Below, piece after piece: positions 27,192 through 46,418 of a stretch of 46,418 nt of DNA. Under the pieces are notes generated by a model. The model did not search any database. It saw nothing but the letters and a program-made list of their open reading frames with translations, and was not told where the DNA came from. Within the stretch, counting starts at the first letter, position 1. Each line of letters opens with the position of its first letter. A program made the translations under genes and the position numbers. Source of the DNA: Clostridiales bacterium UBA6330 (lineage in GTDB: Bacteria > Bacillota > Clostridia > Oscillospirales > CAG-272); NCBI GenBank assembly GCA_002438075.1, contig DJSQ01000188.1, positions 1 through 46,418 on the forward strand. The letters are read 5' to 3'.

Positions 27192-28895
27192 ATGAAAACC
27201 ATCAACACCAAAAAGGCGTTGATCGCAAGCCTGCTTTCGCTGGTGCTTTGCGTATCAATGCTCGTCGGCTCCACCTTCGCGTGGTTCACCGACACCGCAA
27301 CAACTTCGGTGAATACGATTCAAGCGGGTAAATTGCAGGTTGATATTGTGGATGGAGCGGGAGCTTCTCTGAAGGGCAAGTCCATGAGCTTTGTCGATAA
27401 GGACGGCTCTGCGGACATTCTTTGGGAGCCGGGTGCGACCTTCCGCACAATCGGCTTCAAGGTTAAGAACATTGGCAACCTTTCCTTCAAGTATAAGATG
27501 GTGCTCAACGGCGTGGACGGAAACAATGAGCTGCTGGATGTCATCACCTTCAAGGTCGTGAAGGCGGACGGCACGACGGTTGATCTCTCCACCTTTGAAG
27601 GACATCTCAAAAAGGACGATGTGTCCGACCTGCTCTACATCGAAGGACATATGGACGAGACCGCAGGCAACAAATATCAGGATATGAAGCTGGAGGGCAT
27701 CGGAATCACCGTTTACGCAACGCAGGATACGGTGGAGAACGACAGCAACGGCAATACATATGACGATGGCGCGGCGTATACCGAGGTGATTGACGCAGGT
27801 AAGACGTTTACAGGAAAGCAGACGCTGGATGTCGGCGTCACCGCTACCGATGCGAATGCAATTGCAGTGAAGGCAATTGGCGCGGATGCAGATGTTACCA
27901 TCACGGATGGTATTTATGATGGCGGCAATGGCGGAAACAATATCTGCGTTGCGGCGGCTAACGGAGCAAAGGTAACCATCAAGGGCGGAACCTTTACCGT
28001 TGGCGGTGATGCAGACGGCTACGGAAACTCGGTTGTCTATTCAGAGAACGGTAATATCGTAATTGAGGGTGGGTTCTTCTATACGAATTACAGCTACGGC
28101 GGCAGATACTATGTGCTGAATCAGAGCAACAGCAAGCCCGGAACGATTACGGTTAAAGGCGGTACGTTTGTAAACTATGACCCTTCCAAGGGCGATGATA
28201 ATCTGGGCGGCAATTTTGTGGCAGAGGGCTATATGGTTGTTGCGCAGAAGCAGGCAAACGGTGATATTTGGTATACCGTTGTAGAATCTTCAAAATTGCA
28301 AGAAGTGCTTAAAGAAGGCGGTGTTGTTACGGTTTTTACCGATATTGAAACGGGGAACAGTGCCGACACTTCGGACGCTCGCGTTATTATCAAGAATCCG
28401 ACTACACTGAATCTGAACGCAAAAATCATTTCCCCTGATGATATGGGGAACAATAGCACAAACTTTGTTGCGCTGATTGTAGATGCTGACACTACCATCA
28501 ATGCAGACGAAAACGGCGGAATCAATACGGGCACAAATGGCGGCTATGCTCTCAATGTGAGAAATGGTGCAACCCTGACCATCAATGGCGGTTCTTACTA
28601 CGGCGGTGGTACAACGGTTCAGGTTCAGAAGGGAACGCTGATTATCAACGGCGGAACCTTTGCTTGCGAGCCGTTTGGCGCTCCTTATTATACAAACTTC
28701 CTGCTGAACTGCGTCGATGCTGCTTACAAGAATGGCACGGCTAAGATTATTGTTAAGGGTGGCACATTTGTCAACTTTGACCCGTCCAACAATTCGGCAG
28801 AGGGCGCAGGAACCAACTTTGTGGCAGACGGCTACAAGGTGACCTCTGAAACGAAAGATAACGGTGAAGTTTGGTATACCGTTGTTCCGGAATAA
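27192..28895 (+). CDS. TasA-family N-terminal domain with SipW-type signal peptide, fused to two ~150-aa beta-helix-like repeats (567 aa)
   Basis: LVGSTFAWFTDTATT; ...AGNKYQDMKLEGIGITVYATQ; the repeats end KGGTFVNYDPS..NFVAEGYMV..NGDIWYTVV and KGGTFVNFDPS..NFVADGYKV..NGEVWYTVV. Confidence 0.85.
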   Translation: MKTINTKKALIASLLSLVLCVSMLVGSTFAWFTDTATTSVNTIQAGKLQVDIVDGAGASLKGKSMSFVDKDGSADILWEPGATFRTIGFKVKNIGNLSFKYKMVLNGVDGNNELLDVITFKVVKADGTTVDLSTFEGHLKKDDVSDLLYIEGHMDETAGNKYQDMKLEGIGITVYATQDTVENDSNGNTYDDGAAYTEVIDAGKTFTGKQTLDVGVTATDANAIAVKAIGADADVTITDGIYDGGNGGNNICVAAANGAKVTIKGGTFTVGGDADGYGNSVVYSENGNIVIEGGFFYTNYSYGGRYYVLNQSNSKPGTITVKGGTFVNYDPSKGDDNLGGNFVAEGYMVVAQKQANGDIWYTVVESSKLQEVLKEGGVVTVFTDIETGNSADTSDARVIIKNPTTLNLNAKIISPDDMGNNSTNFVALIVDADTTINADENGGINTGTNGGYALNVRNGATLTINGGSYYGGGTTVQVQKGTLIINGGTFACEPFGAPYYTNFLLNCVDAAYKNGTAKIIVKGGTFVNFDPSNNSAEGAGTNFVADGYKVTSETKDNGEVWYTVVPE

Positions 28896-28908
28896 AATCA
28901 ATCAGTCT

Positions 28909-28972
28909 CTCCATCCATCGGGTGGAGGGGCTACCGAAGCGGATAAGCGTTGGTTTATCCGTTTCGGTAGCC
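28909..28972 (+). other. intercistronic double stem-loop, copy 2
   Basis: CTCCATCC-atc-GGGTGGAG, then GGCTACCGAAGCGGATAAGC-gttg-GTTTATCCGTTTCGGTAGCC (G.U pairs only on the plus-strand RNA). Confidence 0.6.
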
Positions 28973-28985
28973 GAATGGCAAAATC

Positions 28986-29072
28986 ATGAGAGGAGGAGAA
29001 GTCTTTTATGAAAAACAGACAATCGGCAATCTGTATAACGGGGGGGGGGGTATCATCTTTCTGAATTGGTGA
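28986..29072 (+). CDS. leader micro-ORF containing the G11 tract: MRGGEVFYEKQTIGNLYNGGGGIIFLNW
   Basis: This frame preserves IG(N/K)LY(N/H)GGG relative to copy 1, with synonymous TTA/CTG and TAC/TAT changes. An alternative ATG at 29008 (with GAGGAGGAG upstream) gives MKNRQSAICITGGGVSSF. Confidence 0.3.
   Translation: MRGGEVFYEKQTIGNLYNGGGGIIFLNW
29040..29050. repeat. homopolymeric G11 tract
   Basis: Counted directly: tataac-ggggggggggg-tatc. Confidence 0.95.
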
Positions 29073-29182
29073 TATCAACCAATCAAGACGGGAAAAAGAC
29101 GAAATAGCGGAAGGTCTCCTTGCGTCGGCGCGGGATGCCTTTCTGACCGTGCGTCGACAATTACAGAAAAGGAGACGAAACG

Positions 29183-31138
29183 ATGAAAACCAACAACACC
29201 AAAAAAGCGTTGATTGCAAGCCTGCTTTCGCTGGTCCTCTGCGTATCAATGCTCGTCGGCTCCACCTTCGCGTGGTTTACCGACACCGCAACAACGGCAG
29301 TGAATACCATTCAGGCGGGCAATCTGAAAATTGACATTGTAAACGAAGCAGGCGTTTCTTTGAAGGGCTCCGACATGAGCTTTGTCAACAAGGATGGCTC
29401 CGCTGATATCCTCTGGGAGCCGGGCGCGACCTTCAGAACCCCGGGCTTCAAGGTCAAGAACATTGGCAACCTTGCGCTCAAGTACAAAATGCTCCTGAAC
29501 GGCGTAACGGGTGACAACGAATTGCTGAAGGTAATCAAATTCTCGGTCGTGGACGAAAACGGCGCGGTTGTGAATTTGGATAGCTATGAGGCGGTCCTCA
29601 AAAAGGATGAAACGAGCGGCGTTCTCTACATCGAAGGTCATATGGCAGAGGATGCGGGCAATACCTATCAGGGCTTAAAGCTGAACGGTCTCGGAATCAC
29701 GGTTTATGCAACGCAGTATGCTGATGAATCCGATAGCAACGGCAGTGATTATGACAAGGATGCAACCTACCCGATTGTTGCGGTTGCAACGGTGACGGTG
29801 GACGAATCCGGAAAAACAACCGAGAAAAGCGAGTTGACCTCCACGGACAGCTCGACAAAGGTTACGGTTCCCGCAGGCGCGAAGGTCGACGATACGAAGC
29901 TGGTCCTGACCATCCATGAAGCCGCAGACCCCGAAAACTTTACGGTAAAAGCAACCGATGTAAGCCAAACTCTGGAAGTAAAGATGGTAGGTCTTGCAGA
30001 GGACAACACGGAGTTGATTCGCGTTGTAATGAATGTTGGCAAGAGTTTGAATGGATTCGCGCTCTATCATAACGGCACCGCAATGACAAAGAAGGATACT
30101 GTGGCAGACCTTACCGCAGATCAGGACTATTATTATGACAGTGCCAAGGGTGAGGTAACGATGTTGACCTCGCATTTCTCTCCGTTTACCTATACCTATG
30201 CAAAGGGAGATTGGAACGATCAGCTCACGGACGATGCCGATTTTGAAACGCCCGTTGATACGGAAAAGAAGGTTGTGACAATTGCTTCCGCCTCGGAACT
30301 GGCTCTGTTTGCAAAGCAGATTACCGATAAGGGAAAGAACTACTCCGGCTATACCGTGAACATCGTTGCCGATATTGATTTGAGTGCCGGACTTTGGAAG
30401 CCGATCAATGGTTGGGGTAAAATGGATCACATTGTGATTAACGGTAACGGGCATACCATCAAAAATATGATTGTTCGGGATTGTATCAATCCGAATAGCG
30501 GTGGATACGGTGCAGGCTTTATTGGTCAGACGAGCGGCTCAATTACTATTGAGAATCTCACTTTTGATTCTGCGAATGTTGCATTTCCCCATGCTGAATG
30601 GTATAATGGCTATGTTGGAAATGTCGGTGGCGTTGTGATGGGCTATACCTACGGAACGACGCTCTTTGAGAATGTCAGTGTGGTTAATAGCACCATTCAG
30701 GGCTACGGTAAAATCGGATGTCTGTTGGGCATGGGTGCAGACCCCGGCGTAAAGGTTACATTCAGGGATTGCGTATCGAAGAATAATACCATTCACGCCG
30801 TTTATAACATGGGTGGACTTGCAGGCAATATTCAACGTGGAAACGGTGTTGACAATACAACGGTGGAAAACTGCACAGTTGAAAATATTGTAGTCGAATA
30901 TGATGCGAATGAAAAATATGCAGATTTGGTTAACGTGAAGGTGACCTACAGCACCAATGATGTAACTGAGGATTCCACCGTGGAAAAAATTGTAAGCGGA
31001 AAATATTGGATTTGTCAAGGTTACTATTGGGGCGGTTATGCGGATTACTATGTTTCTTACGGTGACAGTGCATATGATGCACCTGCGGAAGGGCATAGTA
31101 TGAAACTTGCCAATGGCGAGTATGATGTAAATAAATAA
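29183..31138 (+). CDS. TasA-family N-terminal domain with SipW-type signal peptide, fused to an Ig-like middle region and a GLUG-like beta-helix module (651 aa)
   Basis: LVGSTFAWFTDTATT; ...AGNTYQGLKLNGLGITVYATQ. The C-terminal ASASELALFAKQI...YTVNIVADIDLSAGLWKPI...GNGHTIKNM...GAGFIG...GGVVMG...GGLAG resembles ORF 487..1998. Confidence 0.85.
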   Translation: MKTNNTKKALIASLLSLVLCVSMLVGSTFAWFTDTATTAVNTIQAGNLKIDIVNEAGVSLKGSDMSFVNKDGSADILWEPGATFRTPGFKVKNIGNLALKYKMLLNGVTGDNELLKVIKFSVVDENGAVVNLDSYEAVLKKDETSGVLYIEGHMAEDAGNTYQGLKLNGLGITVYATQYADESDSNGSDYDKDATYPIVAVATVTVDESGKTTEKSELTSTDSSTKVTVPAGAKVDDTKLVLTIHEAADPENFTVKATDVSQTLEVKMVGLAEDNTELIRVVMNVGKSLNGFALYHNGTAMTKKDTVADLTADQDYYYDSAKGEVTMLTSHFSPFTYTYAKGDWNDQLTDDADFETPVDTEKKVVTIASASELALFAKQITDKGKNYSGYTVNIVADIDLSAGLWKPINGWGKMDHIVINGNGHTIKNMIVRDCINPNSGGYGAGFIGQTSGSITIENLTFDSANVAFPHAEWYNGYVGNVGGVVMGYTYGTTLFENVSVVNSTIQGYGKIGCLLGMGADPGVKVTFRDCVSKNNTIHAVYNMGGLAGNIQRGNGVDNTTVENCTVENIVVEYDANEKYADLVNVKVTYSTNDVTEDSTVEKIVSGKYWICQGYYWGGYADYYVSYGDSAYDAPAEGHSMKLANGEYDVNK

Positions 31139-37070: not shown

Positions 37071-38399
37071 TTACTTCCAGACATACAGATTGAGAAATTC
37101 CTGTATTTTTTCGGCGGGAATCGCATAGCCGAGTTGCGCGGATTCCGATCCTGCATAGTGAACTCCTATGACGGTCAATTCTGCGTTCAGTACAGCGCCG
37201 CCGCTTGATCCGCTGGCGGTATAGGCGGTGTGTTCCATGACGGGAAACGTGACATCACTGGAAGAAGAGGGGGTATTGCTGAGCGTAACGGTGGCATATC
37301 TCCGGATTTCACCGTAGGAAATGGTATTGGACTGCCCTTTCGGAGCGCCGACAGAGATGATCTGTTCTCCCTTTTCGGGGTTTTGCGAGGCGATAGGGAA
37401 TACCTTTATCTTGGAAGAATCCGCTTCAAAATAGAGACAGGCAAGATCATAATCCGGGGAAATGGAATGGAGATATGCACGGTAGGTTTGTCCTCTGTAA
37501 TCTTCCACCGTAATCTCCTGCTTGTCATAGGAGCGATTTGCTTTGGCAACATGACAATTGGTCAGAATATAGCAGGCATTGTTTTTGGCATAAAAGCAGA
37601 AGCCCGAGCCTTGCGAGGTAAGCGATGAGGTTTCGATTCCCAAAAAGGTGTTGTAGTTCTTGTTGTGTATTTTGAAAATTCCTCTGATTGCATCCTGCGA
37701 GATCTGATTCGTCAGGGAGGCGGCATCCAATTCAAATTTCGCATACAGGTTCAGATTTTTTGTGATCGGCTTGGAAAAATCGTATTTTGTATTGTATTGT
37801 GCGTCCGAATACCAACCGACAAAAATATAGTTCGTTTTTCGAGGGTCTTGCGGTGCGGAAACGGTTTTCCCTTCGGAAACGGTTTCCGTTTTGATTGTGC
37901 GGTTGTCGGAATGAAAGCTGACCGAATAGGTGCGCGTTGCTTCGGCGGTTGAACGGTGCTTGTTATTTTTAACCGCACTCCCTGTTTTCTGATTGGATTT
38001 TCCGCTTAACAGGACGTCAAAAGAATCAGCCTTGTCATAGAGTTCTTTACCAATAGAAATTTGAAAGGAAATTTCGGAATTAGCGAGCAGACCCAGTTTA
38101 TGCTCGCTTTTCAGCGTTTTCAGCAGGGAGCCGTCCTTTGAGTATACAAAAACGGTGGCGCTGTATTCGGTCAGCGAGCGCTTGCAGTATGCGCTACAGG
38201 TAATATTGTAGTTGGTGGTTGTGGAACCGTTCTGAACATTCAGAGCGGTGGAGGTGGTCCGCTTTGCGGTTACATTGTAGAATTCGTTGTCGGTGACGGT
38301 ATATTCCTTTTCGCTTTGACATCCGACCAAACCGAGTAGCAATGCGACAAGTAATAATAGGGACAGCGCACGAAAAGCGGCATGAAAATGTTTGTTCAT
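37071..38399 (-). CDS. lipoprotein with Listeria-Bacteroides (Flg_new) repeat and C-terminal trypsin-like serine peptidase domain
   Basis: Lipobox LVGC. YSVSFHSDNRTIKTETVSEGKTVSAPQDPRKTNYIFVGWYSDAQYNTKYDFSKPITKNLNLYAKF. Catalytic motifs TNCHVA and GSSGGAVLN. Confidence 0.8.
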   Translation of the reverse strand: MNKHFHAAFRALSLLLLVALLLGLVGCQSEKEYTVTDNEFYNVTAKRTTSTALNVQNGSTTTNYNITCSAYCKRSLTEYSATVFVYSKDGSLLKTLKSEHKLGLLANSEISFQISIGKELYDKADSFDVLLSGKSNQKTGSAVKNNKHRSTAEATRTYSVSFHSDNRTIKTETVSEGKTVSAPQDPRKTNYIFVGWYSDAQYNTKYDFSKPITKNLNLYAKFELDAASLTNQISQDAIRGIFKIHNKNYNTFLGIETSSLTSQGSGFCFYAKNNACYILTNCHVAKANRSYDKQEITVEDYRGQTYRAYLHSISPDYDLACLYFEADSSKIKVFPIASQNPEKGEQIISVGAPKGQSNTISYGEIRRYATVTLSNTPSSSSDVTFPVMEHTAYTASGSSGGAVLNAELTVIGVHYAGSESAQLGYAIPAEKIQEFLNLYVWK

Positions 38400-38490: not shown

Positions 38491-39822
38491 TCATTTTCTT
38501 TTTCGCTTTCCGAACACCTTTTCGGTCTCGGTGCGGATTTCCTTGCGGCAGGCGAGGAGGACGAAAAGGTTGATGGCAGTCATGGAGGCGATGGCGAAGT
38601 CGGCAACCGTCCAGGTTGCCGCGGGAGCGAGAAGTGCGCCGAGCGGGATGCAGGCGGCGAATGCGGCGAGGTAGAGAAGCAGGGGGAGCTTGCGCCGCGT
38701 CAGGGTGCGGACGGCTTCCCTGCCGTAGCCTGCCCAGCAGATGACCGTTGCATAGCCAAAGCAGAGCACCGCCGCGCAGAAGAACCACTTTGCCCAGGGT
38801 CCCAGCACGCCCGTGTAGGCGGAGATGGTCATCATCACCGCGTTGTCACCCCAGCACCTCACCGAGGGGAAGCTGACGAGGATGACCAGCGCGGTTACGG
38901 TGCAGAGCAGGATGGTGTCGGCGAACACCTCAAAAATGCCCCAGACCCCCTGCGAGGCGGGGGAATCGGTCGCGGCGCAGGCGTGCGCGGTGGGCGCGGT
39001 CCCACAGCCCGCCTCGTTGGAGAGTAGCCCGCGCATGGTTCCTACCCGCAGGGCACGGCAGGTCAGGAAGCCGAGAAAGCCCCCTGCGGCGCTTTGCGGG
39101 TGAAAGGCTTCCCGAAAGACCGAGGCAAGCGCTGGTCCCACCGCCTCCCGCCGCAGGACGAGGACCGCCAGCGAGAGGACCAGATAGCCCAGCGACATGA
39201 TGGGAACGAGGTATTCGGTCAGCGCGGACACCGCGCGCGGCGGGCGCAGGATGACGGGGACCGCCAGCACAAAAAGCAGTGCGCCCGCCGCAGGGAGCGG
39301 AAGCCCGAGCGTTCCGTGCAGGGCGGAGGAGACGGCGTTGACCTGAATCACGCATCCCATGCTCAACGCATCAAGGACGGTAAGCCCGCCGAACACGGCG
39401 GCAAGCACCGCCCCCGCGCGCGAGGGGAAACGGTCGCGGATGTAGCGGACGGCACTGCCCGAATGCGTGCCGTCCGGCGCGGTTCGGCGGTGCGAAACGG
39501 CAAGCAGAATTTCCGCATACTTGAGGACCATTGCCAACAGCGCCGAGACCCACATCCAGAACAGCGCGCCTGCGCCGCCGAGCCAAAGCGCGTTTGCCAC
39601 ACCGACGATGTTTCCCACGCCGAGCGTCCCCGCAAGCGCGAGCGTGACCGCACGGAAGGGGGACACGCCATCGGGACTGCTTTTGCGGGTCATGGCGCGG
39701 AGCATCCGCCGCGGGAAGCGCAGGGGCGCGCCGTGCAGATACAAGAGGAAGAAGCCGCCGACAAGGAGCAGAAGCGGCGGAATCGCGCCGCCCGTGAGAA
39801 GTCGGATAACCGTTTGTTTCAT
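38491..39822 (-). CDS. alanine/glycine:cation symporter (AGCS) family transporter
   Basis: SPFRAVTLALAGTLGVGNIVGVANALWLGGAGALFWMW is the signature region of AGCS/AlsT-type carriers; multiple TM helices. Confidence 0.88.
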   Translation of the reverse strand: MKQTVIRLLTGGAIPPLLLLVGGFFLLYLHGAPLRFPRRMLRAMTRKSSPDGVSPFRAVTLALAGTLGVGNIVGVANALWLGGAGALFWMWVSALLAMVLKYAEILLAVSHRRTAPDGTHSGSAVRYIRDRFPSRAGAVLAAVFGGLTVLDALSMGCVIQVNAVSSALHGTLGLPLPAAGALLFVLAVPVILRPPRAVSALTEYLVPIMSLGYLVLSLAVLVLRREAVGPALASVFREAFHPQSAAGGFLGFLTCRALRVGTMRGLLSNEAGCGTAPTAHACAATDSPASQGVWGIFEVFADTILLCTVTALVILVSFPSVRCWGDNAVMMTISAYTGVLGPWAKWFFCAAVLCFGYATVICWAGYGREAVRTLTRRKLPLLLYLAAFAACIPLGALLAPAATWTVADFAIASMTAINLFVLLACRKEIRTETEKVFGKRKRK

Positions 39823-40018: not shown

Positions 40019-40045
40019 TTGGCACTCGGAAGTTTTGAGTGCTAA
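40019..40045. promoter_or_regulatory. CIRCE operator (HrcA binding site)
   Basis: TTGGCACTC-N9-GAGTGCTAA compared with the consensus TTAGCACTC-N9-GAGTGCTAA. Confidence 0.88.
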
Positions 40046-40095
40046 TTCGGCCGAGTGAAAACGAAGTTAAATCAAGAGTCAAGGAGGAATATAAA

Positions 40096-40383
40096 ATGAA
40101 CATCAAACCGTTGGAGGACCGTGTGGTAGTCAAGGCGGTCGAAGCTGAAGAAAAAACGAAGGCAGGCATTTTCCTGACGGCATCCGCACAGGAGAAGCCG
40201 CAGGTCGCGGTTGTGGTCGCGGTTGGTCCCGGGGCGCACAGCGATGATGGCAAGCTGTTGCCGATGAACGTCAAGGTTGGCGACAGAGTCATCACGTCCA
40301 AGTACACAGGAACCGAAATCAAGATGGACGGTGTGGAATACAACATCGTCAAGCAGAGCGACATTCTCGCAATCGTGGAATAA
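40096..40383 (+). CDS. groES: co-chaperonin GroES
   Basis: MNIKPLEDRVVVKAVEAEEKTKAGIFL...; RBS AAGGAGGAA upstream. Confidence 0.95.
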   Translation: MNIKPLEDRVVVKAVEAEEKTKAGIFLTASAQEKPQVAVVVAVGPGAHSDDGKLLPMNVKVGDRVITSKYTGTEIKMDGVEYNIVKQSDILAIVE

Positions 40384-42033
<1,650 letters not shown>

Positions 42034-42106
42034 AAAATAAGGTCGCGGGGCTTTGCCCCGCACCCCACTTAGGGACTTCTTGAAAGAAGTCCCTAAGAAC
42101 CTCAAG

Positions 42107-42172
42107 AACTTCCCCCGAAGGGCAGGATTTCGCTTTGCGGAATCCAGCCCTTCGGGGGAAGTTTGGGTTTTT
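42107..42172 (+). terminator. groESL terminator (long compound hairpin plus U-tract)
   Basis: AACTTCCCCCGAAGGGC (42107-42123) / GCCCTTCGGGGGAAGTT (42147-42163), with the inner hairpin GGATTTCGC-ttt-GCGGAATCC, followed by TGGGTTTTT. Confidence 0.75.
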
Positions 42173-42265
42173 AAGGGATTTTCGAGAGGTTCCCGAATTG
42201 GGTCGCGGGGCAAAGCCTGCGGCTTTTTCTTTGGTACTTTTTTCTTGGGAAAATCAGCGCAGGTG

Positions 42266-42294
42266 TTGACAATTTCGGGGCGGTATGCTATACT
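42266..42294 (+). promoter_or_regulatory. sigma-70-type promoter of the Cys-rich lipoprotein gene
   Basis: TTGACA (42266-42271), 17 nt, TATACT (42289-42294), with a TGc extended -10. Confidence 0.6.
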
Positions 42295-42401
42295 ATAATA
42301 AAGTGCTAAAGTATGGAGAGGGGTGACAGAAGACGATGTAGCAAGATTGTCCGGCGAAAAACAGGAGAAGAACCGAACAACCGAAAAACAGGAGGGAAGC
42401 C

Positions 42402-45400
42402 ATGAAAAACAGGAGAAGATGTTTGGTCGGTATTTTGTGTGCGGTGGCGGCATTGCTTTGCGTGCTGGGGCTGTCCGCGTGCAAAAAGAAAGGACACGTG
42501 CACGAGTGGGGCGAATGGGAGGTTATAAAGGAACCGACCTGCTCCGAGGAAGGCAAGCGGATGCGCACCTGCTCGGGCTGTACCGAGGCAGAGACGGAAG
42601 CGATTGAGAAAATCGCGCACACCTACGATGTGGAGCGCATTTCGGACGAGGCGCTGAAAAGCGCGGCAACCTGCACGGGTGCGGCGGTCTATTATAAGTC
42701 CTGCGCCTGCGGTGCGGTCAGCACGAGCGAGGACGACACGTTTACATACGGTGAGGCTCTTGCGCACACCTACGACAAAGAAGTTGTATCTGATAAAACG
42801 CTGAAAACAGTGGCAATCTGCACGGGTGCGGCGGTCTATTATAAGTCCTGCGCCTGCGGTGCGGTCAGCACGAGTGAGGATGACACGTTTACATACGGTG
42901 AGCGTGCGATGCACCAATTCGACAAAGGGGTCTGCACGGTTTGCGGTCATGTTGGGTGCGACCACAAGACCTTGCACACCAAGACGCTGGACCTGCACGA
43001 GCTGGGGCTGTGTGCGTCGGTGTTTACCTACAGAATCTGCGACTGCGGGACCGTTGTGGAAACGGACGATGACTTCCTTGACAATCTGAACTGCTCCATC
43101 GACAATGAAGCTTGGAATGCGGCATTCCCCGAAAGCGAAGCCGAAAAAGGCGAGGTCCACGGCACGGTAACCTGTGAGAAATGCGGGCTGAATGTTGAAA
43201 TCACCATGCAGTTCACCGAGGATGGATGCCTGTTCCGCTCGCGCTATGTCATCACGCTGAAAAAGGACGACAAGGTTTTGCTTGACCATGCCGTGTCAAT
43301 CTACGAGAACCACGACCACTTTGAGGTGCGCGCGGAAATTCCGCTTCCCTCTGCGGACGGTTTTTGCGGCGGAACGCTGGCGGTGCTGAAATGCAAGTAC
43401 TGCGGAGAGATTACAAAGAAGCTCGCGCTCAAGCCGACCTGCAAGTTTGATTTCGTGCACGGATTGACCAATACCGAGGAGACCGATGCAAACGGCGTGA
43501 AGCACACGATTGCCCGCGGCGTTTGCCCCGATTGCGGACTGACCAAGGAGTTTGACGCTTGGGTCGAAAAGGACGGTTGCGATGAGGTTTCCTTCACGGC
43601 GGAAAGAATCTACCGTGGGGACAAGATGCTTCTGTCAATGATAGACGAAGATTTGCAGAAGTCTCATAACTTTGTCCCGACCTACGAGGCACTCGGTGAA
43701 GGCAGCTGCTATGAGGACGGCATGAAGACAACCTATCGGTGCACGACCTGCAACCTGTCGGTATATTCCTATGAGTATCAACATGCCTCGGTGACCGAAG
43801 TTATCAAGATCAAAGAGCTCGGCGGTTGCGATACACAGATATCTGTGTGGCATTGCATGGCGTGTGGGGAGGTTATTTCTTTCAGTCCGGAATGGGACGT
43901 GCGGCAGAACAATTGCCAAATGGAGGAGACCTCTCAGACCTACACCAAGGACGGTGTGGAGCACACGGTCACAACCAACACCTGCTCGGAGTGCGGGCTA
44001 CAGATTATTGTGGACGCATGGGAGATTCTGCACGGCAAAAACGGCGGATGCGGCTATACGGATTATGAATCGTACCGTGTCATTTACGGTGAGCAGACGC
44101 TGATTTCGTATCAGGGTACGGTTGATGACGGAATCAGGCATGATTGGGACGAGGAGAACGCCATTTACGAATGCGACCCCGACATGGCGTGCGAGGACGG
44201 TTACTACAACGTAGTGCTGACCTGCAAACGGTGCGGTGAAAAGCAAACAATGATGCTGTATGGGCATGACAAGGACGATTTTGGAATCGAACTGGACGAT
44301 TACGGATGCGGCGGATATGTTGGCGGATGGCTTTGCAGGAGATGCGGCGATCTTTATTCCGACATTTGGAATTTTGATTGTGAGAAAAACGGGACGCTTG
44401 TCTGGAGCGAAACGCCTGTGGAAACAACCGACAAGAACGGGCTTGTTCACAAGACGTGGACCGGAACCTGTAGTGCGTGCGGCTTGCAGTTCATTCGGGA
44501 AGAGTGGGCAGAGAAAGAGGACGCATTCGGATGCAGAACGAAATACTATGTGGCTTATCAAATCCTCAAGGATGACGAGGTGATTCTCAAATTCCACTCG
44601 GATGAGGTGGTGGATAAGCACAACGATGATGAGCACATGAAGACCGTGTATGACCGCGAGGGCGCTTGCGAGGACGGCTATTACAAAACCTCCTATTGCC
44701 CGACGTGCGGACTTGCAAGTGCCGATCATATGGAAGGACATAAGGAGGCGTATCGGTCGATTGACGCAAAGGAGCTGGGCTTCTGTCATGGCTCTTTCAA
44801 CGAGAGGTATTGTGTTGTCTGCGGAGAAATCCAATATCAACAAGATCAATTGGAGTGCGACTTTGTCGAAGACGAAGGCTCGGACGGCAAGTCCAAAACC
44901 TGCTCGGTGTGCGGCGCGAAGGTTCTGTACGTTGACAAGGACGAGGAGATCGACCCCTGCCATTTGATCGTGATTTCCGAGGATCACTATATCAATAAAA
45001 ACGGTGAAGATGTCTATGTCATTGAGTATCAAAGCCGCTTCACAACGCACAAGGAGGAGTATGATTTTGAGTTTTATGGAACCTCCTGCTCCGAAGGCTA
45101 TCGGGTGCGTAAGGTTTGCAGTGTGTGCGGTGAGACGACCAAAGATTGGGTGGAGAAGCCTGACCACCGTCTGTTCGACCACGAAGCGTATGAAGATTTG
45201 TTCGTTTGGGACAATGTAGAGGGCGTATGCGAGAGCCATGTCGGGGCAGTCAAAATTAAAGGATGCGCTTGTGGCTTCTTGTTCTATTTCGAGCAGGGTG
45301 ACTTGGTATATGACCAAGCTACCAAGACCTACGGTTGCTCGGAATGCGCGCTGAAGCTCGTGCAAACGGTGACCGAAGACACGGACGGATGCAAGAAGAC

Positions 45401-46319
45401 CACCACAAAAAGAATTGTAATCACCTTTGGTGATAAGGTGCTGTTCAGCGGTGAGGAAACCGCCGTAACGCCGCAGCATTCCTTCGGCTCGTTTGAGTTA
45501 ATCGAAGCGGAAAACGGTTTGACCCTCCGCACAACCTGCGAGCATTGCAGGACGAATGCGGATACCGAAATCGTGCGGGCAACCCATCCCGAGGGGCGCA
45601 CCGATTGGAGCTTTGAATTTACGCCTGCGGTGAACGGTATCTATACCTTCCAGCTGTTGGTCGGTAAAACGCTTAAAATTTCCGAGAAGGACGGCGACCA
45701 TTTCGTTCAGAAGGACTACGACCCGAACGGAAGAATTCGATGGTTCATGAAGGCAGGGCAGACCTATAAGCTGTCGTGGGCTGAATCCGAAACAACCGAG
45801 AAATGGGAGGCGTATATCGCCATCCTTCCGAGCCACGCGAATTGTGGGGGTTATATCAACAATAATGGCTACGGCGTTCTGCTCCCCGGCTCCGAGACCT
45901 GCGAGGATGGAATGTTGCGCTGGAGCTATTGCTCGTCTTGCGGGGCGATTGGGGATAACGATTCTTTGAAGCTCTACTATGAGCACAAGACACGGCATTG
46001 GTATCTGCCGGGGCATGAGATTGGCATCTGTGATGGCGGACAGTTCATCCTTGACGAGTGCCCCTGCGGAGGCGCTTATGACATCGGGCGCGGAGCCTTC
46101 TGCAAGGGCGTGGACGAAGTGACGGTTGACAGCGAGTTCTATGGCGGATGCAAGTTGGAGACCTACACCTGCACGAAATGCGGACTGTACTATGAGGTCT
46201 ACTATAAGGAAACGACAGACGAGGAAACAGGAGCAGTGACGGTTGATTATTTGTATGTTGTAATCACGGTTCACGATGAGGTCGTGTATTCGTGGGGGAC
46301 CCCGCCTACAGCTGCGTAA
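42402..46319 (+). CDS. 1305-aa Cys-rich modular lipoprotein, function unknown
   Basis: RBS AGGAGGGA. Lipobox LGLSAC. 19 CxxC plus 5 CxC motifs arranged in repeated ~150-aa units. Confidence 0.85.
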   Translation: MKNRRRCLVGILCAVAALLCVLGLSACKKKGHVHEWGEWEVIKEPTCSEEGKRMRTCSGCTEAETEAIEKIAHTYDVERISDEALKSAATCTGAAVYYKSCACGAVSTSEDDTFTYGEALAHTYDKEVVSDKTLKTVAICTGAAVYYKSCACGAVSTSEDDTFTYGERAMHQFDKGVCTVCGHVGCDHKTLHTKTLDLHELGLCASVFTYRICDCGTVVETDDDFLDNLNCSIDNEAWNAAFPESEAEKGEVHGTVTCEKCGLNVEITMQFTEDGCLFRSRYVITLKKDDKVLLDHAVSIYENHDHFEVRAEIPLPSADGFCGGTLAVLKCKYCGEITKKLALKPTCKFDFVHGLTNTEETDANGVKHTIARGVCPDCGLTKEFDAWVEKDGCDEVSFTAERIYRGDKMLLSMIDEDLQKSHNFVPTYEALGEGSCYEDGMKTTYRCTTCNLSVYSYEYQHASVTEVIKIKELGGCDTQISVWHCMACGEVISFSPEWDVRQNNCQMEETSQTYTKDGVEHTVTTNTCSECGLQIIVDAWEILHGKNGGCGYTDYESYRVIYGEQTLISYQGTVDDGIRHDWDEENAIYECDPDMACEDGYYNVVLTCKRCGEKQTMMLYGHDKDDFGIELDDYGCGGYVGGWLCRRCGDLYSDIWNFDCEKNGTLVWSETPVETTDKNGLVHKTWTGTCSACGLQFIREEWAEKEDAFGCRTKYYVAYQILKDDEVILKFHSDEVVDKHNDDEHMKTVYDREGACEDGYYKTSYCPTCGLASADHMEGHKEAYRSIDAKELGFCHGSFNERYCVVCGEIQYQQDQLECDFVEDEGSDGKSKTCSVCGAKVLYVDKDEEIDPCHLIVISEDHYINKNGEDVYVIEYQSRFTTHKEEYDFEFYGTSCSEGYRVRKVCSVCGETTKDWVEKPDHRLFDHEAYEDLFVWDNVEGVCESHVGAVKIKGCACGFLFYFEQGDLVYDQATKTYGCSECALKLVQTVTEDTDGCKKTTTKRIVITFGDKVLFSGEETAVTPQHSFGSFELIEAENGLTLRTTCEHCRTNADTEIVRATHPEGRTDWSFEFTPAVNGIYTFQLLVGKTLKISEKDGDHFVQKDYDPNGRIRWFMKAGQTYKLSWAESETTEKWEAYIAILPSHANCGGYINNNGYGVLLPGSETCEDGMLRWSYCSSCGAIGDNDSLKLYYEHKTRHWYLPGHEIGICDGGQFILDECPCGGAYDIGRGAFCKGVDEVTVDSEFYGGCKLETYTCTKCGLYYEVYYKETTDEETGAVTVDYLYVVITVHDEVVYSWGTPPTAA
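42614..42907 (+). repeat. tandem 147-bp (49-aa) duplication inside the Cys-rich gene
   Basis: AHTYD..(I/V)SD..LK....CTGAAVYYKSCACGAVSTSEDDTFTYGE occurs twice. 42671-42756 and 42818-42903 differ at only 2 positions. Confidence 0.9.
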
Positions 46320-46332
46320 AATGTTCTATGAG

Positions 46333-46368
46333 AAAGCCGACACCGAAAGGTGTCGGCTTTTGATTTTT
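46333..46368 (+). terminator. intrinsic terminator
   Basis: AAAGCCGACACC-gaaa-GGTGTCGGCTTT followed by TGATTTTT. Confidence 0.85.
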
Positions 46369-46418
46369 CTACACGGGTGCCGATCGGGTTATGATAGAAT
46401 GCCTTACACGGGTGCCGA

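Follow-up and report, generated by a model that had tools for sequence, protein, structure and literature searches.

A gut Clostridia lipoprotein of tandem His/Cys modules as a candidate metal-clamped surface stalk

The gene and the predicted export of its product

The window analysed here is the whole stretch of 46,418 nt from contig DJSQ01000188.1 of Clostridiales bacterium UBA6330, an uncultured gut Clostridia bacterium. ORF calling and composition identified on its forward strand, to which all positions below refer, a coding sequence for a Cys-rich lipoprotein of 1305 aa (42402..46319). An earlier note on this DNA had given the gene its own consensus promoter and terminator, and we located both. 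The promoter is of the sigma-70 type (TTGACA-17-TATACT with a TG upstream; 42266..42294), agrees with the consensus at 11 of 12 positions and is kept in three orthologous loci (L001-L003). The RBS AGGAGGG, read directly from the sequence (42390..42396), is followed 5 nt downstream by the ATG, and the gene is followed by a strong intrinsic terminator consisting of a 13-bp stem with seven GC pairs, a 4-nt loop and a T-run (46332..46371; stem and T-run also placed at 46332-46361). The gene is monocistronic, and no conserved partner genes were found in three other family loci.

The first 27 residues (42402..42482) form a Sec-type lipoprotein signal peptide, judged from the sequence and from the relatives. 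It reads MKNRRRCLVGILCAVAALLCVLG-LSAC, in which the positively charged n-region MKNRRR is followed by the hydrophobic h-region CLVGILCAVAALLCVLG, and at the end of the latter the lipobox L24-S25-A26-C27 (42471-42482) fits the pattern [LVI][ASTVI][GAS]C. By inspection, a lipobox-like motif is present in all 12 full-length relatives that were fetched, and scoring assigned a lipobox to 72 of the 159 family members. A further form of N-terminus, a signal peptide with an N-terminal dockerin recognised by its dockerin-like duplicated calcium loop, was found in 39 of the 159 (Dockerin_1 score of 34.3 bits in the best relative), and an LPXTG-like motif in one. The conserved Tat motif S/T-R-R-x-F-L-K was not found, with RRR in the window protein and no RR pair in P0002, P0005, P0009, P0014 and P0016; because the twin-arginine pair varies among relatives, Sec is favoured over Tat. 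Pfam detected neither dockerin nor cohesin in the window protein, and no glycoside hydrolase or CBM at threshold. We conclude from these sequence features that the window protein is probably a Sec-exported lipoprotein, with predicted lipidation at Cys27. This agrees with the earlier description of an extracytoplasmic lipoprotein of a probable anaerobe, as do the relatives, which come from MAGs of gut and rumen Clostridia.

Repeat anatomy and motif statistics

The protein contains 83 Cys residues (6.4%), and our recount returned exactly the 19 CxxC and 5 CxC motifs that had been reported. Compared with 5,000 shuffles, CxxC was enriched (19 versus 4.8 +/- 2.1, maximum 14), and the triplet C-x8-11-C-x1-2-C occurred in 15 copies versus 1.8 (maximum 6). 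CxC alone showed no enrichment (5 versus 4.9 in the shuffles), and four of the five CxC motifs lie at triplet positions. A His residue stands 11-22 residues before the triplet in 15 of 15 cases. That this His belongs to every triplet module had been missed by the earlier reader.

The chain is laid out as four short N-terminal His/Cys modules, seven super-repeats of ~110-155 aa and one Cys-free β domain. Module A (aa 32-60; 42495..42581) has H32/H34, C47, C57 and C60 and is predicted by AF2 with a pLDDT above 95. The two 49-aa AHTYD units already described proved to be a 147-bp tandem duplication with 83% amino acid identity; B1 covers aa 72-120 (42615..42761; H73, C91, C101, C103) and its duplicate B2 covers aa 121-169 (42762..42908; H122, C140, C150, C152). 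Module C is a compact knuckle of aa 172-188 (42915..42965; H172, C178, C181, H183, C186, H188), read from the sequence, with low AF2 confidence from about aa 178; by inspection, its pattern H-x5-6-C-x2-C-x4-7-C-x-H also occurs in relatives.

A complete super-repeat consists of X (H…C-x8-C-x2-C), M (C…CxxC…C on long β-hairpins) and Z (H…C-x9-10-C-x2-C), and in the window protein these landmarks follow one another in this order within about 140 aa, in tandem. Six to seven super-repeats had been proposed, and HMM iteration gave seven, of which four are complete and three partial. Super-repeat 1 (aa 196-305; 42987..43316) comprises X and M without Z. It is followed by the four complete units, namely super-repeats 2 (aa 320-461; 43359..43784), 3 (aa 468-622; 43803..44267; the unit that was modelled with AF2), 4 (aa 629-780; 44286..44741) and 5 (aa 787-917; 44760..45152). 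Super-repeat 6 (aa 941-1055; 45222..45566) is degenerate, with X, a three-Cys M and a lone CxxC (C1046/C1049). After it come the Cys-free beta domain (aa 1056-1147; 45567..45842), an isolated Z-type module (aa 1148-1180; 45843..45941) with C1167, C1177 and C1180 plus H1145 or C1148, and the C-terminal super-repeat 7 (aa 1205-1297; 46014..46292), again X and M without Z. The tally of predicted sites is 15 of His+Cys3 type (H-x11-22-C-x8-11-C-x1-2-C), one His/Cys knuckle and seven of Cys4 type (C...CxxC...C), or about 23.

Conservation, predicted fold and relatives

To see how far the ligands are conserved, we compared 1,059 super-repeats from 160 proteins. Conservation is 92-100% at the ten Cys positions and 99% at the His of the Z module (His104), and a His lies 15-17 residues upstream of the X triplet in 87%, against a His background of 3%. 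In the 49-aa unit, the H-C-C-C set is retained in 739 of 771 copies. The substitutions at ligand positions include Cys to His, His to Cys, and Cys or His to Asp or Glu. Where Cys4 sites have lost ligands, a single Cys was missing 96 times and a pair only three times. Metal sites are therefore favoured over disulfides, given the invariant His beside the three-Cys sets, and losses that are single and not paired and are often exchanges between Cys and His. The earlier note had left open zinc-ribbon-like or disulfide-knotted modules; the first description is the one that these observations favour, as metal-binding modules, and the second is not. In each module, the His and Cys side chains would, as we infer from their conservation, converge on one site.

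AF2 models were obtained for aa 420-650 (pLDDT 91.2, pTM 0.75) and aa 28-200 (pLDDT 91.7). Both are all-β, and the triplet module is predicted as a three-stranded sheet with CxxC at the hairpin turn. In model numbering, DSSP assigned strands E5-11, E22-28 and E34-39 around C17 and C28/C31, and E44-50, E60-66 and E72-75 around C57 and C66/C69, while the M part of the aa 420-650 model has five strands of 10-14 residues. The modelled modules thus have the three-stranded antiparallel beta sheet of a zinc ribbon, with knuckles at hairpin turns. However, they lack the two CxxC knuckles (four Cys ligands) of the classical form, and in each of them a lone knuckle, CxxC or CxC, is accompanied by one further Cys and by a His some distance away.

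The earlier note knew of no assigned function for the units, and Pfam (zinc-ribbon families included), NCBIfam and PDB gave no family match for the modules. HMM comparison with PDB yielded bL33 (E = 0.15) and RPA12 (E = 0.25), neither significant, and Foldseek aligned 29 residues of RPA12 (rmsd 2.3 A, E = 1.6), with NrdR and ribosomal ribbons as weak local likenesses. In other words, zinc ribbons were the only likenesses found in sequence or structure, all of them insignificant (E >= 0.15).

The earlier note called it unusual for a protein to consist of little else than such units, but the window protein is not unique. Its family was counted as 652 clusters at 50% identity, and elsewhere as at least 356, and its members are unnamed or labelled only hypothetical in the sources. 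Many are far larger than the window protein, with members of 2,000-7,500 aa; the largest has 7,583 aa and up to 25 matched stretches occur in one giant relative, so that the window protein is a small member. The 49-aa unit occurs in hundreds of surface proteins. The short H..Y...PTC..G....C..CG repeat, which the earlier note recognised from other large Clostridial surface proteins, is indeed common there in the form H..(W/Y)..C..G..C..C, in proteins with recorded PF00963, PF00404 and PF00395, which we take to be cohesin, dockerin and SLH, and PF13306, PF09479/PF18998 and PF02415, presumably BspA-type LRR (LRR_5), Flg_new and Chlam_PMP, respectively. A second check, in single proteins, again gave cohesin, Dockerin_1, SLH and Flg_new.

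The Cys-free insert that had been noticed before the last unit is present as a stretch of 98 aa between C1049 and C1148, and our analysis adds that it represents a diverged form of a domain found repeatedly in the family (106 copies in 60 proteins). The window insert had no Pfam match at E <= 10 or E <= 0.1, and did not reach the gathering score for PA14, GLEYA or PPC. Among the copies of relatives, sub-threshold Pfam matches were obtained to GLEYA (7 of 25), PA14 (5 of 25) and PPC (3 of 25), the lowest E value being 3e-4, and the recurrent insert also weakly matched the C-terminal part of the beta-glucuronidase AbsR1. Because the window copy is without the family motifs DTYV and NDDGG and without a Pfam match, a binding role for it is speculative.

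A proposed metal-clamped stalk and its alternatives

We propose that the protein is a lipid-tethered surface stalk of about 23 metal-clamped modules, probably an adhesin-like scaffold, and give this reading an even chance. We infer that metal is bound and which metal it is, that the molecule is rod-shaped and that it functions in adhesion. The chain would be exported by Sec, lipidated at Cys27 and tethered to the outside of the membrane in a Gram-positive gut anaerobe. Once mature, it would consist of small all-beta modules in a row. A single tetrahedral metal site, most probably for structural Zn2+, would cross-link each module, with the Cys4-type sites clamping the ends of long beta-hairpins. 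Such clamps may stand in for the disulfides or isopeptide bonds of other surface fibres, and they would suit a reducing, anoxic habitat because disulfides are unstable there. The result may be an elongated stalk or scaffold that bears a single, diverged beta-sandwich domain close to its tip, most plausibly in an adhesin-like or spacer role. Points against the proposal are the insignificant scores of all zinc-ribbon likenesses and the assumption that metal is loaded after Sec export; moreover, structural zinc sites are not known to be common in proteins that fold extracellularly. The scaffold or adhesin part of the proposal is drawn from the short units beside cohesin, dockerin, SLH and other domains, the weak GLEYA, PA14, PPC and AbsR1 matches of the insert, and the monocistronic gene.

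If the sites do bind metal, they might serve not as structural elements but as a surface sponge, whose thiolates would sequester Zn, or thiophilic toxic metals (Cu, Cd, Hg), or buffer their levels. About 23 predicted sites in a mature chain of 1,278 aa, the repetition in giant relatives and the predicted surface location would fit such a role. However, the ligands appear to lie in the core of beta modules that are predicted with confidence, which is where structural sites would be placed, the surroundings of four loci contain no genes for metal transport or resistance, and within the family the repeats are joined to dockerins and lectin-like domains typical of scaffolds or adhesins; we consider a sponge unlikely. 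Slightly less probable still are disulfide-knotted mini-domains without metal, comparable to eukaryotic Cys-rich extracellular repeats. The protein is extracellular and Cys-rich, and the four Cys of the M part, an even number, could pair as two disulfides. But modules X, Z, A and B have three conserved Cys and an equally conserved His, and this weakens the disulfide reading because an odd number of Cys leaves a free thiol and the His is unexplained. The exchanges between Cys and His, the excess of single over paired losses, the reducing conditions of the gut and rumen hosts and the zinc ribbon as the only local fold likeness also argue against it.

The anaerobic hosts and the many, regularly spaced metal sites could also be taken to indicate redox-active iron, as rubredoxin-like Fe or small Fe-S centres, with the chain of sites carrying electrons along the cell surface, and CxxCG knuckles are common to rubredoxins and zinc ribbons. 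Neither Pfam nor NCBIfam gave a rubredoxin or Fe-S match, and in place of the paired CxxCG ... CPxCG of rubredoxin the ligand sets are H+C3 or C...CxxC...C; we know of no Fe-S motif with His+Cys3 at these spacings. Export that looks Sec-type, without a conserved twin-arginine, would rule out cofactor insertion in the cytoplasm, and no redox partner genes lie nearby in the window locus or three other family loci. We therefore regard iron centres as very improbable, and give equally little credence to the idea that family proteins of up to 7,583 aa, with dozens of sites, conduct electrons without haem on the surface of gut and rumen Clostridia and so parallel multi-haem cytochrome wires by means of thiolate-bound metal. 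By far the most known zinc ribbons work in the cytoplasm and bind nucleic acid, and the weak likenesses found here are to nucleic-acid-binding zinc-ribbon proteins, so that a cytoplasmic poly-zinc-finger protein binding nucleic acid, with an N-terminus that is not a functional signal peptide, was also considered. This is the least probable reading, and hardly credible, in view of the canonical lipobox shared with the relatives, its replacement by a signal peptide and dockerin in others, the short units beside SLH, cohesin and dockerin, and the strongly acidic chain (E+D 17%, K+R 9%).

The metal-clamped stalk that we prefer can be compared with several known systems. The zinc ribbons of RPA12/TFIIS (C-terminal), bL33 and NrdR (N-terminal) are likewise small modules in which three antiparallel beta strands carry a CxxC(G) knuckle where a hairpin turns, and the RPA12 knuckle aligns with the module stretch 'DG.t...tC..CG'. 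Here, however, a remote His, together with one Cys that lies in a C-x-[DE]-G turn, takes the place of the first CxxC knuckle, the second may be CxC, and the modules are predicted to be extracellular, are arranged by the dozen in tandem and are joined to M units with long beta-hairpins. To the possibility that these proteins form a class of extracellular poly-zinc-ribbon fibres not described before we give slightly less than an even chance, which makes it much likelier than the iron reading. If the sites bind zinc, gut and rumen Clostridia would hold a large unannotated extracellular family built on tandem metal-clamped mini-domains, which would show how strict anaerobes make stable surface fibres without disulfides. 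Hundreds of hypothetical or unnamed proteins, dockerin-bearing ones among them, would gain names and domain models, and two or three domains could be newly defined, from the 49-aa H-C-C-C unit, the X-M-Z super-repeat and the insert.

Gram-positive adhesin stalks, such as isopeptide-bonded Ig-like domains and the Zn-dependent G5-E repeats of SasG/Aap, are similar in that long tandems of small beta domains extend from the cell surface, with cross-links for mechanical stability, a terminal anchor and a binding domain. Their fold is unrelated, the predicted cross-link here is an intramodule tetrahedral His/Cys metal site instead of an isopeptide bond or an intermolecular Zn bridge, and the anchor is a lipid or dockerin, not LPXTG. 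If poly-zinc-ribbon fibres are indeed formed, such sites would join disulfides and isopeptide bonds as a third means of stabilising bacterial surface stalks. The variant-specific surface proteins of Giardia, a zinc-binding coat, are also CXXC-rich and displayed on the surface of a gut-dwelling organism. These are eukaryotic proteins with a transmembrane anchor and the motifs CxxCHxxCxxC and GGCY, whereas the window protein has regular H+C3 and C4 ligand sets in defined beta modules; homology was neither detected nor expected. The window protein, lipid-anchored and without dockerin or cohesin, also differs from the cellulosomal dockerin proteins of Clostridia and Ruminococcus. The calcium loop of the latter is nevertheless shared by the 39 dockerin-bearing family members, which are thus presumably cellulosome-associated, and the 49-aa unit itself occurs in cohesin and dockerin proteins.

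Repeat architecture of the lipoprotein

The ORF at 42402-46319 on the forward strand is real and encodes 1305 aa. Its N-terminus, MKNRRR-CLVGILCAVAALLCVLG-LSAC27-KKKG, is by its sequence a canonical lipoprotein signal, and the lipobox proposed in the earlier note was found as LSAC, ending at C27; the mature protein is predicted to be lipidated and surface-exposed. The protein contains 83 Cys (6.4%) and 44 His; the neighbouring GroEL has 3 Cys in 543 aa. There are exactly 19 CxxC and five CxC motifs, as had been counted from the sequence, and that first description was accurate in all checkable particulars. When the residues of the mature chain were shuffled 5,000 times to give a chance baseline, CxxC proved strongly enriched (19 vs 4.8 ± 2.1, maximum 14), and the triplet C-x8-11-C-x1-2-C was enriched too (15 vs 1.8, maximum 6). 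CxC alone was not enriched (5 vs 4.9), and four of its five occurrences are the knuckle of a triplet.

Iterative HMM searches placed seven super-repeats, where six to seven had been claimed, at aa 196-305, 320-461, 468-622, 629-780, 787-917, 941-1055 and 1205-1297. A complete super-repeat consists of three elements in order: an X module (H-x14-16-C-x8-C-x2-C, with the consensus ...IDL.E.G.CGG.....C..CG), an M unit (a lone Cys, about 23 residues, CxxC, about 15 residues and another lone Cys) and a Z module (H.Y.Y.YEL.G..C.DGY....TC..CG). When 52 repeat windows of the query and its relatives were aligned, the invariant or near-invariant columns were exactly the His and Cys positions. The short N-terminal modules follow the same plan of one His and three Cys (H+C3) and are matched by the Z end of the super-repeat model. 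Each of the 79 Cys in the mature chain was assigned: 15 H+C3 triplets take up 45, a compact H/C knuckle at aa 172-188 takes three, and 27 belong to the seven M sets (four Cys in six of them, three in the other); a lone CxxC (C1046/C1049) and two stray residues (C591 and C1148) complete the count.

The two 49-aa AHTYD units (aa 72-120 and 121-169) are present as described earlier and constitute a 147-bp tandem duplication with identities of 87% at the nucleotide and 83% at the amino acid level. At the corresponding position of this duplication (42652-42927), the orthologue P0003 has one unit only, and in the close relative P0002 another kind of Cys module replaces the first unit. The duplication thus appears lineage-specific, suggesting that unit number shifts fast via tandem duplication.

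Probable metal sites and predicted fold

The earlier note had left open whether the modules are zinc-ribbon-like or disulfide-knotted. We examined this in 1,059 full-length super-repeats from 160 proteins, mostly representatives of 50%-identity clusters. The ten Cys of the super-repeat are kept at 92-100%, and the His ahead of the Z triplet is 99% conserved (1,050/1,059). A His also occurs 15-17 residues ahead of the first X Cys in 87% of super-repeats, against a His background of 3%. Similarly, 739 of the 771 copies of the 49-aa unit (96%) have the full H-C-C-C set, the knuckle being CxC in 380 and CxxC in 297. Rare replacements include Cys to His at the first (10) and second (4) M Cys, His to Cys (3), and His or Cys to Asp or Glu, which look like substitutions of the kind seen at metal ligands. 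Incomplete four-Cys M sets lack a single Cys in 96 cases and two Cys in only 3. Joint loss would be expected of disulfide partners, so this pattern argues against disulfide pairing. Taken with the invariant His, the odd Cys numbers and the exchange between Cys and His, it favours tetrahedral metal sites. In other words, the metal alternative of the earlier proposal is favoured by the pattern of conservation and loss, and a disulfide-knotted protein is less consistent with it. For a Sec-exported protein, which would have to load its metal outside the cell, the most likely metal is Zn2+.

We modelled aa 420-650, a segment with super-repeat 3 between the Z module before it and the X module after it, with AlphaFold2 from the 52-row alignment. 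The model reached a mean pLDDT of 91.2 and a pTM of 0.75, with no segment below 50. The triplet module is predicted as a three-stranded antiparallel sheet, with the single Cys in a short turn and the CxxC at the following hairpin turn, and the M unit as five long strands of 10-14 residues with its four Cys at the strand ends. A second model of aa 28-200 gave a pLDDT of 91.7; only the last ~20 residues, from the compact knuckle onward, were poorly defined. In Foldseek searches of 350,542 PDB chains, neither model had a match at E <= 0.001 (the lowest E values were 0.028 and 0.7), and the super-repeat model had none against BFVD at the same threshold. Compact local superpositions involved only zinc ribbons, namely RNA polymerase I subunit RPA12 (29 residues, rmsd 2.3 A), the N-terminal ribbon of NrdR and ribosomal ribbon proteins, all non-significant. 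Profile searches of PDB sequences with the super-repeat, the N-terminal units and the Cys-free insert likewise gave nothing significant; the matches of the super-repeat were again only to zinc ribbons (bL33, E = 0.15; RPA12, E = 0.25), and the bL33 and RPA12 alignments fall on 'DG.t...tC..CG'. The earlier remark that no function is assigned to such units fits these searches, which returned no characterised family. Since the zinc-ribbon matches are all non-significant, they indicate resemblance and not membership. The modules would work like zinc ribbons but lack the defining two-knuckle C4 feature and any significant similarity, and we therefore call them zinc-ribbon-like.

The data best support an elongated, probably rod-like surface protein that is anchored by lipid and made of ~23 small beta modules, each of which would be clamped by a structural metal ion, most probably Zn. 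Metal clamps would make sense for strict anaerobes, which cannot rely on disulfides in a reducing habitat. Three other readings also assume metal binding and are less consistent with the data. That of a cytoplasmic zinc-finger protein shares the His/Cys ligand sets, and the canonical lipoprotein signal speaks against it. Redox-active iron at the His/Cys sites would use the same ligands; the twin-arginine pair in the signal peptide was considered as a sign of Tat export, and it is not a conserved feature among relatives. This speaks against a cofactor protein that folds before it leaves by the Tat route. The last is a surface metal sponge, which agrees with the predicted location; against it, the ligand positions are those of small, confidently predicted beta modules.

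Neither Pfam-A (2025), NCBIfam 20 nor the PDB covers the X-M-Z super-repeat, the 49-aa H-C-C-C unit or the insert domain, and neither the repeat nor the family turned up in searches of the literature. We regard the domain family and its architecture as novel and the structural principle beneath them as familiar.

Family, anchoring and the insert domain

A word-indexed search for relatives identified the full-length proteins P0002-P0004, with 66-73% identity, and ten distant relatives with 26-31% identity (P0005, P0009, P0012-14, P0016, P0027, P0033, P0054 and P0077). By inspection, a lipobox-like motif was present in all fetched full-length relatives, close and distant. Apparent matches of relatives to PF16459 (Phage_TAC_13), HNH_5 and the CSL zinc finger were rejected as summed weak matches with no single passing stretch. 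The whole window protein gave nothing below E = 0.07 against Pfam, NCBIfam and PDB sequences. Hundreds of further proteins match only ~10% of the query, which corresponds to the 49-aa unit, in line with the earlier statement that this short unit occurs in other large Clostridial surface proteins. Their recorded Pfam accessions are PF00963, PF00404, PF00395, PF13306, PF09479/PF18998, PF02415, PF07523 and PF02368, which we take to be cohesin, dockerin, SLH, BspA-type LRR, Flg_new, Chlam_PMP, Big_3 and Big_2, respectively. Using hmmscan, we re-confirmed Cohesin, Dockerin_1, SLH and Flg_new beside the unit in single proteins.

A full HMMER scan of the super-repeat profile against 1.84 billion cluster representatives detected 652 proteins at E <= 0.001, 356 of them at E <= 1e-30. 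A protein made almost entirely of such units, which had been called unusual, is thus not unique. Many members have lengths of 2,000-7,583 aa, and the number of matched stretches reaches 25; three giant relatives examined contained no Pfam domain, and 'hypothetical protein' was the sole name given in eight clusters looked up. Anchoring was compared in the 159 proteins that carry two or more full super-repeats. A lipobox is present in 72, and in 39 a dockerin-like duplicated calcium loop comes after a signal peptide (Dockerin_1 reaches 34.3 bits in the best protein and is marginal in others); LPXTG is almost absent. These anchors suggest a consistently extracytoplasmic location for the family, with attachment through lipid or, apparently, through cohesin-dockerin docking. 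The closest host genomes are uncultured Clostridia MAGs of the human gut (UMGS1014 and a Hadza 'Eubacteriales' MAG; 67% identity), and gut MAGs of sheep, goat, rabbit and chicken gave more distant matches.

The Cys-free, beta-looking insert noted before is present at aa 1056-1147. It is not a one-off: an HMM seeded from the window copy found 106 copies in 60 family proteins, with the consensus YYYD..FTPE.SG.YTI.S....DTYV.LY....G.L..I..NDDGG.N.NF.L...LEAG.TYVYRIR.Y. The window copy is a divergent member that has lost the DTYV and NDDGG motifs, and it matched no Pfam model. Of 25 copies, seven gave sub-threshold matches to GLEYA, five to PA14 and three to PPC (best E = 3e-4), and one copy aligned with the C-terminal part of the beta-glucuronidase AbsR1 (E = 5.6e-6), although it falls far short of the cut-off set for the whole protein. 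Given that these are all beta-sandwich accessory or binding domains, ligand binding by the insert is plausible but unproven.

The most likely function is that of a stalk, scaffold or adhesin, because rigid tandem modules are combined with surface anchors and interspersed lectin-like beta-sandwiches, the units co-occur with adhesin and cellulosome domains, and the genes are monocistronic without an enzymatic partner. Gram-positive adhesins have stalk repeats stabilised by cross-links, and these are the second functional analogue of the window protein. The closest is the variant surface proteins of Giardia, which are CXXC-rich and zinc-binding (PMC2996952); neither analogue is homologous.

Gene signals and neighbouring loci

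The gene lies directly downstream of groES (40039-40383) and groEL (40402-42033), an order retained in the P0003 contig. As the earlier note stated, it has its own promoter and terminator: TTGACA-17 nt-TATACT with an upstream TG at 42266-42294 (11/12 matches), kept in three orthologous loci, and a 13-bp stem with a T-run at 46332-46361. The ribosome-binding site AGGAGGG is located 5 nt ahead of the ATG. No partner gene is shared near four family loci, where the neighbours are only unrelated housekeeping genes, so that the loci give no operon-based functional clue. At the locus of the distant relative P0054 (L014, 1049-6829), two large ORFs of 814 and 1033 aa, neither with a Pfam match, lie directly upstream on the same strand and may be paralogues or partners.

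The spacer between groEL and the lipoprotein gene contains nested inverted repeats (42044-42220): 27-nt arms at 42049-42075/42191-42217, a perfect 14-bp hairpin at 42068-42097, and 27-nt arms at 42107-42163. These hairpins are preserved in three orthologous loci with compensatory base changes. Rfam gave no match anywhere in the window, including this spacer, which could be a structured groESL 3' UTR, a cluster of terminators or an RNA element of an unknown kind. The sequence GAAAAACAGGAG(A/G)(A/G)GA occurs as three direct copies at 42356, 42383 and 42404 (stretch 42356-42419), the second overlapping the ribosome-binding site and the third covering codons 1-6. They are largely kept in orthologous loci and may reflect translation control or a duplication trace. 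Immediately past the terminator, two copies of TACACGGGTGCCGA (46370-46383 and 46405-46418) flank a weak promoter-like site at the window edge. Because the orthologous contig has a minus-strand gene of the HTH_3 family downstream, the repeat may be an operator.

Elsewhere in the window, a stretch at 27192-31138 has a GC content of 0.47-0.49, against 0.55-0.60 in the remainder, and holds two large ORFs: one of 567 aa (27192-28895) without a Pfam match and one of 651 aa (29183-31138) with only a weak N-terminal match to Peptidase_M73 (camelysin). This stretch may be a surface or fibre locus that was acquired horizontally. Upstream of groES, on the minus strand, a trypsin-like serine protease fused to a Listeria-Bacteroides (Flg_new) repeat (37071-38399) is probably a further secreted or surface protein. 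It adjoins a sodium:alanine symporter gene (38491-39822, minus strand), and the order of these two genes is repeated in the P0003 contig.
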